From Octopus vulgaris (taxonomy: Eukaryota): a stretch of DNA of 64,000 nucleotides. Every line of letters begins with the position of its first letter. Within the stretch, counting starts at the first letter, position 1. The notes beneath the pieces were generated by a model. That model ran no database searches, was not told the origin of the DNA, and was given only the letters and a program-made list of their open reading frames with translations. Location of the stretch: the NCBI GenBank assembly GCA_951406725.2, contig OX597819.1:23746001-23810000 (forward strand), read 5' to 3'. A program made the translations under genes and the position numbers. Below, one piece after another: positions 3,990 through 63,168 of the stretch.

Positions 3990-4380
3990 GAAAAACTGAT
4001 GAATGGGGTCTTGTTTCATTAGGACAATGCTTCAGCACACAAGTCCTTGGTTTCAATGGCTACTGTATCTGACTGGCTTTGAACTGGTTGATCATCCTCC
4101 CTATGTTAGTGATTTGGTTCCTTCTGGTTATCATCTGTTTCCCAACATAGAAAAACACTCAGCTGAGCACCAGTATCACTATGATGAGAACATCTTATCT
4201 GTTGTTGATGACCATTTTGATCAACAGAAAAGCTTCTTTACCAGTGCGACCCAAGCACTGCAACTGCTAATGGAAGCGTGTGGACAGCAAGAGGAACTAT
4301 GTTAGAAAATGAACTTCATTTGGTCACATTCCATTGAGAGTGTCTTGCTCGGATTATGAACATTTCAGCAGACCCTCATA
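3990..4380 (+). pseudogene. Mariner transposase 3' remnant with right TIR
   Basis: Translates to (Q)DNASAH..GFELVDHPPYVSDLVPSGYHLFP (mariner HPPYSPDLAPSD motif); frameshifted; ends tttcagcagaccctcata. Confidence 0.88.
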
Positions 4381-5605: not shown

Positions 5606-5664
<59 letters not shown>

Positions 5665-5760
5665 CATGTGTGTGTATATGTTCGTGTGTTTGTATTGAAA
5701 ATCTCCGACCGAATGCTTTGTGATTCATTGACGGCAGACTATATATATATATATATATAA
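4816..5760. repeat. (CA)n/(TA)n/(TATG)n microsatellite field with a SINE B fragment at ~5524-5607
   Basis: Visible arrays; caagtgtcttctactatagcc..ggtagacggaaactgaaag is family B sequence. Confidence 0.9.
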
Positions 5761-17140: not shown

Positions 17141-18019
17141 ATCATGGGTACCAACCTTCGTGCTCGTGCAGCTCTCTATCCCTCCTGCTTACCCATCTTC
17201 GATATATTCTAGGTCAAGGCTGAAGGGGCCGAGAGTATATTTGTGTCTGTTCGCAACTACATAAGCACCCGAAACGATTAGCAAAAAACATGACAGAAGT
17301 TACCATGTCTTACTTGCGGGCGAGTAAAGATTAACTGTTTTTTGTATTATGAATTGAGACATTCGATCAATAAAGCTAAATATTTATTCTTAACTTACCA
17401 CAGCCATAAAGCCACACATTTGAATATGGGCGATTATATCAGTGCTAGTGTTTGGCTGGTACTTAATGTATCGATCGCAGAAGGATTAGAAACAAAAGCT
17501 GACCTCAGTGAAATTTGAACACAGAATATCAAGAGATGTAACTAAACATGACAAGGTGCTTTATCCAATTGGCCATCATTTCTGACAACTCAACGTTCTA
17601 GAAACAGCTTTACTGTACTAGAAACAACATCCTAGAAATAGCTCGAGATTCTTGAGATTTTGTAAAGAAAATGTTTGTATATTGTGTACGGTGTAGATAT
17701 TATAGTATTGAATAAACATATTGTATGAGGTAGAGAGATATTGTACTGACAGTGTATAGAGGTATAGTATAGAGATATTGTACGTGGATTGCATCGAAAA
17801 TCATGCAAAACGGGCAAAACTTTTCTATTAAGTGACATAGGTCGTTCAAATTGCATATTTTGATTGAGTAACTCTTCCTCTGTCTTATCTTATATCTTTT
17901 ATTTTTTGCTTGTTTCAGTTATTGGACTACGGCCATGCTGGGGCACAGTCTTGAAGGGTTTAATCGAACAAATCGACCCTAATATTTACACACGCTGCTC
18001 ACAAGTACAAACGCACACA

Positions 18020-18682
18020 CAAAATTGATAATACTACCGATAGCGACAAATGGAGAATGTGCGGTGAGAGGGGTGAAACGGTATGGCACATCATTAACGA
18101 ATGCTCGAAATTGGCACAACGCGAATACAAACGGCGCCATGACAATGTGGCAAAAATGATCCATTGGGAGTTCTGTGGGAATCACAGCCCACAAAGAGCA
18201 AAGACGTGGTATGAGAAAACCCCGGAAGGAGTCACCGAAAATAAAATCCCGTGGGATGTAATGATCCAGACCAAACATAGGAAACTTGACATTGTTGTGG
18301 TGAATAAAAAAGAATATGTGATTATCGACATAGCATGCCCCGATGACAACAGGACCAATGTGAAAGAAGAAAAAATAAACAACTACGACGATTTAAAGTG
18401 GGAAATACGAAGGTTGTGGTTAATGAAGAGAGTAGACGTGATACCAATAGTAATTGGTGCATTTGGAAGTATCAGCACTCAACTACCAGCATGGCTGAAA
18501 AAGATGAGTGCAAGTGGGAAGGTATAACTTCTACAAAAATCAGCATTGCTTAGAACTGCAAGAATTCTTCGCAGAGTTTTGAAGTATGACCAGTAAACAA
18601 GTGTCACCTTATTCTGCTGGCTGTGGACAGCTGATACTTTCCATCATACCCAGCAAAATGAACTGTGAGTTTTCATACAACT
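18020..18682 (+). mobile_element. R4/Dong-like RLE non-LTR retrotransposon, 3' fragment
   Basis: Zinc-knuckle remnant RMCGERGETVWHIINECSKLA, YKRRHD, (P)DIVV..IIDIA..EKxxxY, IPIVIGAFG; 3' UTR followed by (AAT)n. Confidence 0.9.
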
Positions 18683-27743: not shown

Positions 27744-27830
<87 letters not shown>

Positions 27831-27831
<1 letters not shown>

Positions 27832-28201
27832 CATAAGGGGGATCAGCCATCTGAATGTGGCTAGGGTCAGGGCGGGGCGGTGGGGGTGTTACTGATGCAT
27901 TTAGCCCCAGGCGAACATCAACGTCACCAGAAGAGCTGACACCATCTCGGTGTCCTTGCCAGCTTGCAAAGGGAGATCAGCCTCCCCGAAGATACGGATA
28001 CTACACACGGACCGGTTTCGATGTTATTGCCTCTTGTCAACGTATGGTAAGCACCGCTCTTCGTTGAGGGACTCTCTCTACAGGCTGGATATATAGATTT
28101 TCACAGTAACCACTGATCCCCCTGGGGCTAAATGCATCAGTAACACCCCCACCACCCCGCCCTGACCCTAGCCACATTCAGATGGCTGATCCCCCTTATG
28201 T
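27831..28201. mobile_element. 371-bp element with 81-bp inverted terminal repeats in TA context, carrying an internal hammerhead
   Basis: 27831-27911 versus 28121-28201 inverted with 1 mismatch; tata on both sides. Confidence 0.9.
28004..28046 (-). ncRNA. Minimal type-I hammerhead ribozyme, U3-A8 core variant
   Basis: Minus strand: catacg TTGACAA gagg-caataa-catc GAAA ccgg TC cgtgtg; 6-bp stem I, palindromic ACCGGT stem III, GUC cleavage triplet; stem II has one mismatch. Confidence 0.7.
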
Positions 28202-28241
28202 TATAGAACAGTTACTGTTTATATCTCGCTCAGAGATTTGT

Positions 28242-28285
<44 letters not shown>

Positions 28286-29494: not shown

Positions 29495-30490
<996 letters not shown>

Positions 30491-30515
30491 GAAGAAGAAG
30501 AAGAAGAAGAAGAAG

Positions 30516-31118
30516 GAATATATTCACAGACATGACAGAGTTGGAACTTACATACATTGGAAGCTATGCCAACATTATGGAATAACAACAGAAAAAAGAT
30601 GGTATAGGCACACACCAGAAAAGGTCACAGAAAACGAGAAAGCAACCATACTCTGGGATATGCCGATACACACAGATAGAGAAATTAAGGCCAACAGACC
30701 AGATATAGTTGTCAGAGACCATGAAGAAAAAAAATGCTTTCTAATTGATGTATCAGTACCGGCAGATGACAACGTGTCTCTAAAAGAAATGGAGAAACTC
30801 TCAAAATACAAAGACCTGGAAATAGAGGTAACCAGAATGTGGAATCTGAAAACAGAAACAATTCCTATCATAGTAGGTGCATTAGGCATGATAAAAAAAT
30901 ATTCAGACAAATACATAACAAAAACACCAGGACTTACAAACACATATAACATACAGAAAATTGCACTACTAGGCACTGCACACATCCTACGCAGAGCACT
31001 TTCCATACAATAACCATCAGAGCATCACAACAAATCACAGCACATACCCAAGGCACACAGAGCTGCGCTCGGTAGTGAAGTGAAAGCACGCTATAAAAAT
31101 AAAAATAAAACTACTGAA
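30516..31118 (+). mobile_element. R4/Dong-like RLE retrotransposon 3' fragment, uninterrupted frame
   Basis: EYIHRHDRVG..ILWDMPIHTDREIKANRPDIVV..LIDVSVP..EKLSKY..IPIIVGALG..stop at 31013; UTR then (AAT)n. Confidence 0.93.
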
Positions 31119-48687: not shown

Positions 48688-48947
48688 CTGGAGGAAATGT
48701 CTTAGAGTTACGCTACACGCGCACGCACGCACGCACATACACATAGACACGCACACACACGCTGGCGTACAAAAGTACAAATACGTGCATGCACATGCGC
48801 ACTTACATATGCATTCATACACATACACTCACTGACACGCTGACACACAAACGTGCAGATATGCGCATACATACACGCAGACACACAAACACACACATAT
48901 ATATATATATAAGCACATATACAAACACTCATACATATATACACAGT

Positions 48948-49310
48948 TACTTGTTTCAGTCATTTGACTGTGGCCATGCTGGAGCACGGCCTTTTAGTCG
49001 AACAAATCGACCCCAGGACTTATTCTTTGTAAGCTTGATACTTATTCTATCGGTTTCTTTTGCCGAACCACTATGTTGCGGGGACATAAGCACACAGACA
49101 TCGGTCGTCAAGCGTCGGTGGGAGGACAAACACAAAGACACACACACATAAATATATATATTTCAGTTTCCGTCTATCAAATCCACTCACAAGGCTTTAG
49201 TCGACCCGAGGCTGTAGTAGAAGATACTTGAAACAAAGTGCCATGCGGTGGGACCGAACTCGGAACCATGTCGGGAAGCAAGATTCTTACTACCACACAG
49301 CCACGTCTGC
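48948..49310 (-). mobile_element. SINE family B
   Basis: Reverse complement of family B. Confidence 0.87.
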
Positions 49311-51629: not shown

Positions 51630-51993
51630 TGTGTGCATGTGCCTCTGTGCGTGCCTGTATGTATGTGAATTGTCATGAAGCAATATTTACATATAAGTAT
51701 TTGTAAAATGGATGTCTTTTCGTACGTATACGTTTGTATGAACATAATGGGAAGGAGACTTGTTACATGTCAAATGTACACACGCACACATACACTCATA
51801 CGCACACGATTTTAGTGGCAAGAATATTTATGAACCACAGAAACACGCACATGAAGACACACTTGCAGACATACACTGACACGCACATACGCAAATACAC
51901 AAACATACGCACAAACCCGCGCACAGACATAGGCAAGCACACACAAGCGCTATTAATCACTACGTCATATGCCCAGGTTCGAAATTTCCCCAA

Positions 51994-52039
51994 GACACCT
52001 GATGAAGGCTGGAGGGTATACAAGCCGAAACATTGTGTC
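51994..52039 (+). ncRNA. Minimal type-I hammerhead ribozyme, tandem copy 1
   Basis: gacac CTGATGA a ggct..agcc GAAA ca TT gtgtc. Confidence 0.75.
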
Positions 52040-52185
52040 AACAACAAACAAGATGAGGACAAATATCCGTCAAATGTAAATGATGTACGTAGGCAGTCTA
52101 GAAGTTTCGGAACAAACCTCTACTGACACACTCACTTTAATGCATTTATTGCAGCGCTCTAGCCACTTCGGGAAGGCCCCCCGAA

Positions 52186-52231
52186 GACACCTGATGAAGG
52201 CTGGAGGGTATATCAGCCGAAACGTTGTGTT
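52186..52231 (+). ncRNA. Minimal type-I hammerhead ribozyme, tandem copy 2
   Basis: gacac CTGATGA a ggctg-gagggtatat-cagcc GAAA cg TT gtgtt; palindromic AACGTT stem III; GUU triplet. Confidence 0.8.
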
Positions 52232-52321
52232 AACAATAAACAAGATGAGGACAAATATCCGTCAAATGTAAATAATGTACATAATTCCTCATCCCTTAAA
52301 TATAGAACTGTATTGTATATT

Positions 52322-52692: not shown

Positions 52693-53034
52693 CTTATAAA
52701 TAAGGGCTAAAGAAAATTATTTCTATGCCAATATGTTGATAGCAGACTTTTAAATCGTCAATTTCCACACATTATTTACTCGCTACAGAAAAACACTCGA
52801 AGAGCTGAAATCGAGGAAAGCCGGCCGATAGAACTTTTTAAAAAAGTTCGTTATTTCTATATTGAATCAATTTCGGAATTAAACTCAAAATAGATTTTTT
52901 TCCTCTTCAGTAGAAGATACGAAAGGATATAAATAAGATACTTACATGCGCCCATTCCGAAATTGAGTACCGCATTTAGTCGAACAAATCGACATCAGGA
53001 CTTATTCTTTGTAAGCCTAGTACTTTTGCCGAAC

Positions 53035-53688: not shown

Positions 53689-53775
53689 ACTCAAATACAC
53701 GACGCATACAGATACATACACCAATGGTTACACACGCAAATTAATTTTCCTTAACAGAAATTATACATATAGATC

Positions 53776-54170
53776 AGGAGTGGCTGTGTGGTAAGTAGCT
53801 TGCTTACGAACCACATGGTTCCGGGTTCAATCCCACTGCATGACGCCTTGGGTAAGTGTCTTCTACTATAGCCTCGAGCCGACCAAAGCCTTGTGAGTGG
53901 ATTTGCTAAACGGAAACTGAAAGAAGCCCGTCGTATATATGTATATATATACATGTATGTGTGTGTGTGTGAGTGTTTGTTACCCCAACATCGCTTGACA
54001 ACCGATGCTGGTGTGTTTGCATCCCCGTAACTTGGCGGTTTGGCAAAAGAGACCGACAGAATAAGTACTAGGCTTACAAAGAATAAGTCCTGGGGTCGAT
54101 TTCTTCGACTAAAGGCGGTGCTCCAGCATGGCCGTAGTCAAATGCCTGAAACAATTAAAATAGTAAAAGA
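53776..54170 (+). mobile_element. SINE family B, full length
   Basis: A-box tggctgtgtgg, B-box gggttcaatcc, internal (TA)/(TG) tract, tail ..gcggtgctccagcatggccg..tgaaaca. Confidence 0.9.
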
Positions 54171-62662: not shown

Positions 62663-62904
62663 ATTCTTTTATTCTTTTATTTGTTTCAGTCATTTGACTG
62701 CGGCCATGCTGGAGCACCGTCTGTAGTCGAACATATCGGCCCCAGGTCTTATTCCTTGTAAGCCTAGTACTTATTCTATTGGTCACTTTTGCCGAACCGC
62801 TAAGTTACGGGGACGTAAACTCACCAACATCAGTTGTCAAGCAATGGTGTGTGTGTGTGTGTGTGGGGGGGGGGAACACAAGCACACAAACATATACATA
62901 TACA

Positions 62905-62974
<70 letters not shown>

Positions 62975-62975
62975 C

Positions 62976-63013
<38 letters not shown>

Positions 63014-63168
63014 GACGGGCTTTCAGTCTCCGTCTACCAAGTCCACTCACAAGGTTTTGGTCGGTCCGATGCTATAGTAGGAGATACATGTCCAAAGTAC
63101 CACAAAATTGGATTGAACCCGGAACCATGCGGTTGGTAAGCAAACTACTTACCACACAGCCACTCCTA
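62663..63168 (-). mobile_element. SINE family B with internal (TCTA)n(CA)n
   Basis: Reverse complement of full-length family B. Confidence 0.88.

Follow-up and report, generated by a model that had tools for sequence, protein, structure and literature searches.

Layout of the Insertion

A repeat insertion occupies positions 27831-28245 of the window (the whole 64-kb stretch of DNA that was analysed, which is animal DNA, microsatellite-rich and about 36% in GC, with repeats that look cephalopod) and sits between two (TA)n runs. The main copy is read on the minus strand and carries a hammerhead ribozyme motif, and to its right lies a second, inverted copy of its own 3' end. The features are given below.

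27769..27830, no strand: (TA)n microsatellite, the left target remnant
27831..27911, minus strand: 3' end of the main copy (the left 'TIR'), which runs into (TA)n without a tail
27912..28113, minus strand (the sense strand): body of the main copy, its 5' side cut near 28113; it has depth in four of four runs
27996..28056, minus strand: type I hammerhead motif, by Rfam HH9, whose extended stem I comprises 6 bp, then the UUAC/UA internal loop, then 5 bp
28010..28019, minus strand: GAAA box, palindromic helix III and C17, by sequence
28020..28033, minus strand: stem II (4 bp) and 6-nt loop II, with a mismatch at 28022 that is private to the locus copy
28034..28040, minus strand: core box, with U3 (28040) and A8 (28035) replacing C3 and G8, by sequence and as the majority states in four of four runs
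28114..28120, no strand: inversion junction, which contigs crossing 28113 do not have
28121..28205, plus strand: second copy of the unit's 3' end, inverted and 5'-truncated (the right 'TIR' and TATA)
28206..28245, plus strand: optional family 'tail' of 40 nt with two small hairpins, at the right end only
28245..28280, no strand: (TA)n microsatellite, the right target remnant

The locus holds a single unit, not a tandem array. Open frames of at least 100 aa at the locus are only run-offs into the microsatellite, so that the unit is non-coding, and the ORF listing has no RT or GIY-YIG frame there; an open frame of about 63 codons, read off two ORFs, extends from 27976 across the arm and the tail. 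BLAST within the 64-kb window found no second copy of the element. The stability of the tail hairpins was not above that of shuffled sequences (z -0.96). At the inversion junction, 28113-28123 matches the arm's own 3' part (28186-28196) over 11 nt, and a motif of 11-14 nt recurs at 27838-27851, 27969-27982, 28113-28123 and 28184-28197, that is, in the 3' part of the arm, inverted in the body and at the junction. This recurring motif may have guided a template switch.

The 81-bp inverted ends with one mismatch that an earlier note on this DNA had described were recovered as arms at 27831-27911 and 28121-28201, with the mismatch at 27878/28154, and the inverted repeat reaches 85 nt when the common TATA is included. 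The same note had placed the arms in a TA context. The right-hand TA, however, is not flank, since family sequence runs on to 28245, so the 81-bp arms are not enclosed by a TA target-site duplication. The insertion had also been called probably young; youth is plausible, but the single arm mismatch cannot date it, as the mismatched site is polymorphic in the family (18-26% of depth). Both arms have the same minority letter at 28165/27867, where the family letter makes up 85-97% of depth, pointing to the copying of both arms from one source.

The Hammerhead Motif of This Copy

The hammerhead was located on the minus strand as the earlier note wrote it, with its core boxes, stem II, GAAA and palindrome. 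The core box from U3 to A9 is read from 28040 to 28034, GAAA from 28019 to 28016, the palindromic ACCGGU from 28016 to 28011 and C17 at 28010, and the cut is predicted from the sequence between 28010 and 28009. The core letters other than 3 and 8 are canonical, and the Watson-Crick 3-8 pair is present as U3-A8. A generic descriptor, in which any Watson-Crick 3-8 pair was combined with a 6-bp stem I and a 2-bp stem II, gave one match in the window and none in 20 of 20 shuffled windows or 3000 of 3000 element shuffles. The match of a looser descriptor at 52910 is probably due to chance. Rfam at its gathering threshold gave no match in the window, and Hammerhead_HH9 (RF02275) matched 27987-28059 under that threshold (E=0.0025; 22.9 bits, the gathering score being 52). 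The alignment spans the whole model including the UUAC/UA loop and loop II, whereas the motif differs from RF02275 in this low score, in its U3/A8 core and in not being a single conserved intronic ribozyme.

More of the motif is present than had been seen at first, with a distal stem I past the UUAC/UA loop and a loop II of CAAUAA, both of which align to HH9; together, distal stem I and the 6-nt loop II make up the peripheral domain that canonical type I hammerheads of metazoans have. The minimal hammerhead of Penelope-like elements (PLEs) is described as having a helix II of 7-8 bp, a bulge between 9 and 10.1 and a short helix I without a tertiary loop (PMC4209133). The label of a minimal Penelope-type hammerhead, which the motif had been given, does not hold, as there is no bulge after A9, stem II has 4 bp and stem I is extended. 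Stem I pairs with probabilities of 0.79-1.0, and stem II of the locus copy, which carries a G-A mismatch at 28031/28022, with low probabilities of 0.05-0.16. Helix III consists of one pair and a palindromic loop and is stable only as a dimer; its 6-mer is self-complementary, with a duplex energy of -8.3 kcal/mol. With a single ribozyme and a broken stem II, the locus copy is probably a dead end.

The U3-A8 Core in the Family

Evidence on the family was drawn from contigs of public runs placed on the locus. Part of the stretch occurs in 20 runs (three organism labels, ten studies), none of them recorded as RNA and eight guessed to be so. Four of 24 listed runs were used for the family: X1, X2 and X3, which are DNA-like and of which X1 may be the source sample, and X9, one of the eight guessed to be RNA. 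Only contigs at least 80% like the locus copy were counted (1085 in X1, 1033 in X2, 866 in X3 and 103 in X9), and the shares below are therefore biased toward the letters of that copy; contig depth is not copy number, and no single contig covers the whole stretch. The ribozyme pattern had no match in metagenome contigs, and viral contigs gave no matches. One metagenome contig (834 kb, 28% GC) matched a 20-nt arm motif and was set aside as chance, the common stretch being only 21 nt.

U3 accounts for 72-90% of depth and A8 for 54-99%, and both are in the majority in four of four runs. The C3 share is 10% in each of X1, X2 and X3 and 28% in X9, and the G8 share is 46% in X1, 0.8% in X2, 17% in X3 and 35% in X9. 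C3 and G8 appear together in long contigs (X1 record 3, X3 record 20 and X9 record 27), as read from depth sums and end distances and not from direct phasing, and a C3-G8 subfamily coexists with U3-A8 in the same repeat. The C3 and G8 shares disagree within runs, which may reflect intermediate haplotypes with an unpaired U3-G8 or C3-A8 combination, or else an effect of short contigs.

Variation in the rest of the motif follows the structure. All six stem I and stem II variants seen in at least two runs keep or restore pairing, and one stem I variant (27999), from a single X9 contig, breaks a pair. Loop II varies freely, with variants at 28024-28028, and neither the other core positions nor 28010-28019 have a variant among the rows listed for the four runs. 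At 28022, the pairing letter makes up 99.9-100% of depth in four of four runs, so that the letter of the locus copy is private. From the U3/A8 majority, the accompanying C3-G8 subfamily and the pairing-keeping stem variants, it follows that the swap is a family trait and not decay of this locus. The proposal that U3-A8 is a compensated state was thus borne out, and a comparison across copies, suggested in order to see whether the consensus is CUGANGA with independent decay at positions 3 and 8, returned U3 and A8 as the majority instead. Decay of the locus copy was dropped for positions 3 and 8 and retained for 28022. The segment 27912-28120 is predicted to fold into a long rod (z -2.5 on the minus strand, -1.7 on the plus strand), and its reading as a viroid-like structure was dropped, five of seven paired-site variants outside the ribozyme breaking pairs.

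The novelty that had been implied for U3-A8 was not upheld. Perreault et al. 2011 described natural U3-A8 hammerheads, with U3-A8 covariants reported as active in vitro (PMC3088659), and U3-A8 is present in about 1,300 PLE motifs of Schistosoma, with minimal U3-A8 hammerheads in the Cercyon PLEs of Schistosoma mansoni (PMC4209133). These hammerheads have the same compensated pair in a PLE-linked, multi-copy setting. Unlike the present motif, they are minimal, with a 7-8-bp helix II, a bulge after A9 and a poorly defined loop 1, whereas here a canonical peripheral domain and a C3-G8 subfamily are found in the same repeat.

Ends, Breakpoints and Unit of the Family

Beyond the right arm, 28206-28245 is family sequence at a depth of 264k-377k in the three DNA-like runs, and the family has two 3' end points 40 nt apart. 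At the first, 28205, contigs go on into (TA)n (21 in X1, 13 in X3). At the second, 28245, the loose ends are mixed (32 contigs in X1, 24 in X2), with an agreement of 0.5-0.56. The left interior-to-arm junction is general in the family, the loose ends before 28121 resembling the end of the interior (17 contigs in X2), and the right junction of arm and body is private to the locus. Contigs crossing 28113 lead into other sequence (three in X1, four in X3), and the depth minimum lies at 28104-28115.

The breakpoints vary among copies. Five of the six joints listed link the body to the arm or the tail, at 27941/28147, 27941/28172, 27959/28205, 27968/28158 and 27975/28134. Each comes from one contig with a depth of 18-46 and a shorter side of 26-29 letters, and sides under 30 letters are weak. 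Individually weak as they are, all five have the same geometry as the locus and are its inversion at other breakpoints. The sixth joint runs tail to head, from 28113 to 28245 on opposite strands; it is listed in X9 alone, in three contigs with a depth of 202 against 275-408 at that end, and no contig showed an array as a whole. When the X1 loose ends after 28245 were compared by eye with the reverse complement of those after 28113, a T-run and a 6-nt motif were seen at matching offset, which implies a linker of about 31 nt and a unit of about 358 nt.

The depth of the arm is 5-12 times that of the 3' half of the body and 6-32 times that of the ribozyme core, as would fit 5' truncation. Indels of 1-2 nt are present in the family. 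A second repeat family has 28209-28245 under other upstream sequence (loose ends before 28209 in 23 X1 and 19 X3 contigs) and is a candidate for an autonomous partner or a sister parasite.

Likeness to Retrozymes and Penelope-Like Elements

Retrozymes are described as tandem units of 150-450 bp with type I hammerheads, which are expressed as circles and for which the use of PLEs was proposed (PMC7229834). Cervera and de la Pena 2020 gave unit sizes of 350-390 nt in mussel and 330/350 nt in axolotl, and the axolotl HHR_Amex1 type works as a dimer (PMC7229834). The metazoan non-LTR retrozymes share with the present family a non-coding unit of about 360 nt, self-paired RNA and, going by the joint in three X9 contigs, probably a head-to-tail junction. 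The closest ribozyme type is HHR_Amex1, likewise a type I hammerhead in which helix I has 6 bp and helix II 4 bp, with loop-loop elements and a palindromic tetraloop closing a helix III of one pair. The family differs from published retrozymes in its U3-A8 majority core and in that short 3' fragments seem to make up most of its copies. Its copies also have the inversion of PLEs, an optional tail and (TA)n targeting; for the published retrozymes, tandem arrays and longer TSDs are described. The link between retrozymes and PLEs is backed by co-occurrence and pLTR similarity in the preprint of Li, Clavereau and Pollet 2026 (10.64898/2026.07.22.740005), where one of nine Xenopus retrozyme dimers was cleaved and eight were not. 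The retrozyme papers leave the mechanism of mobilisation open (PMC7229834; 10.64898/2026.07.22.740005).

For PLE insertions, Craig et al. 2021 described flanking inverted repeats that arise from a 5'-truncated copy in inverted orientation, together with a tail of 30-40 bp often at one end only and a bias to microsatellites (PMC8557442). Frangieh et al. 2024 found the tail to be bounded by two RT start sites and the protein to cut AT-rich DNA, and insertion in vitro did not need ribozyme cleavage (PMC11167929). The marks of PLE insertion were found here: an inverted 5'-truncated copy at the locus and in the five joints, a tail at one end, and (TA)n on both sides. The locus is like the EN+ clades of PLEs in its 5' truncation, its adjacent inverted 5'-truncated copy with flanking inverted repeats, its one-end tail of 30-40 bp, its microsatellite target and a hammerhead upstream of the tail. 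It is unlike them in that no RT/GIY-YIG ORF is present at the locus, that the unit seems to join back to its own start at about 360 nt, and that the ribozyme is of the full type.

The U3-A8 core, the retrozymes and their proposed PLE partner are each known and are not usually combined. A search of mainly open-access literature found no report of the family or of a full-type retrozyme hammerhead whose core is U3-A8. The repeat annotation of Octopus vulgaris lists Penelope and MITE families, and ribozymes are absent from its main text (PMC13282606).

Interpretation of the Insertion

The earlier note had offered two readings, a non-autonomous Penelope- or retrozyme-like element that resembles a MITE, and a MITE that captured a ribozyme. 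Under the second, the locus would be a DNA transposon of MITE type that has 81-bp TIRs, is flanked by a TA duplication and has captured a retrozyme fragment. Like MITEs, the locus is short and non-coding, with near-perfect 81-bp inverted ends and, at this locus only, TA on either side; MITEs that target TA microsatellites are reported from plants, and an arm far commoner than the interior would be expected of a TIR common to several MITE families. Among copies of this family, unlike MITEs, the ends and the length of the inverted repeat vary, and the sequence passes the right end. A MITE that ends at the outer TIR ends with a fixed TSD was rejected on the high-depth family sequence at 28206-28245, which takes the family 40 nt beyond the right arm, and on its two 3' end points. 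A MITE with fixed TIRs was rejected on the private right junction, the general left junction and the five further pairs of breakpoints, for each of which a single contig has 26-29 letters on its shorter side, and the tail-to-head junction likewise speaks against capture by a MITE. The locus is not a MITE, and the capture reading is largely refuted, with hardly any probability left to it. The first reading fared better, since contigs reveal a PLE footprint on a retrozyme-sized unit. The locus is probably best explained as the insertion into (TA)n of a multi-copy, non-coding U3-A8 repeat, likely a retrozyme with a unit of about 360 nt for which a Penelope-like element would do the copying in trans. 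In the window and the contigs, no autonomous partner was found. A mechanism can be proposed in which transcription of tandem arrays yields multimers. Pairing of two ribozymes via the palindrome of helix III would let them cut after C17, and the resulting monomers would circularise. A PLE protein with RT and GIY-YIG would then bind the 3' end and nick TA-rich DNA, reverse transcription would start at one of the two sites that bound the tail, and a second, inverted priming event would produce the 81-bp inverted repeat.

The same insertion mechanism would serve if the locus were instead a 3' pseudo-LTR fragment of an autonomous PLE, in which case ribozyme, arm and tail would belong to a coding element with its ORF beyond the tail. 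All footprint evidence from the contigs fits this, and the geometry is like that of the anole PLE, in which the ribozyme sits at the start of the ORF and the tail follows a short way downstream (PMC11167929). The open frame that begins at 27976 and crosses arm and tail for about 63 codons also speaks for it, the mixed loose ends after 28245 (agreement 0.5-0.56) could hide an ORF-bearing continuation, and the second family with 28209-28245 under other upstream sequence (23 X1 and 19 X3 contigs) is compatible with it. Yet the tail-to-head junction comes after about 31 nt, 63 open codons are within chance while the family has 1-2-nt indels, and the ribozyme is built like those of retrozymes, with full stem I and loop II; the minimal form that is typical of metazoan PLEs is present in the window at 51999 and 52191. 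A pseudo-LTR fragment is accordingly judged unlikely, though of some weight. Lower still stands an origin of the same element with a dead ribozyme, in which two transitions became fixed in a master copy that PLE machinery, with no need of cleavage, then amplified. A8 lies in a former CpG (C7-G8), and CpG is a mutation hot spot; the C3 and G8 shares differ inside runs, and PLE insertion in vitro did without cleavage (PMC11167929). This account is made improbable by the rest of the core, which has no variant among the rows listed, by stem variants that keep pairing across several subfamilies and two organisms, and by the U3-A8 covariants that are natural and, in the reported assays, active in vitro (PMC3088659). 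Within the preferred explanation, a copied retrozyme, a further step is put forward tentatively: an active retrozyme lineage that bears the full Penelope footprint may be amplifying in several related species and, at the same time, switching its core from C3-G8 to U3-A8, perhaps via a U3-G8 wobble, with the two cores still found side by side.

Implications

The partnership of retrozymes and PLEs has so far been argued from co-occurrence and pLTR similarity. Copies with the inversion, the optional tail and (TA)n targeting make it testable. Insertions of this kind can be filed as MITEs, and searches based on CUGANGA overlook the majority subfamily with U3-A8. If the core-switching lineage were true, it would give direct structural evidence of PLE proteins mobilising retrozymes with canonical hammerheads, the arm and the 40-nt tail would be the cis signal, and the two cores would form a natural pair for testing whether the swap tunes the cleavage rate.

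Other Features of the Window

Two minimal PLE-type hammerheads with ordinary C3-G8 cores lie at 51990-52260 on the plus strand. Their core boxes, at 51999 and 52191, are 192 nt apart in direct orientation, and they belong to a family separate from the studied element. The open frames 30444-31013 and 17964-18527, both on the plus strand, look by eye like restriction-like endonuclease C-termini of non-LTR retrotransposons, and the frame 4003-4305 (plus strand) resembles a C-terminal fragment of a mariner transposase; Pfam gave no significant match for these three ORFs. The frame 30444-31013 adjoins an (ATA)n run. Another SINE-like repeat occurs in several copies with similar translated stretches, at about 5650-5740, 48750-49150, 53750-54140 and 62700-63140.
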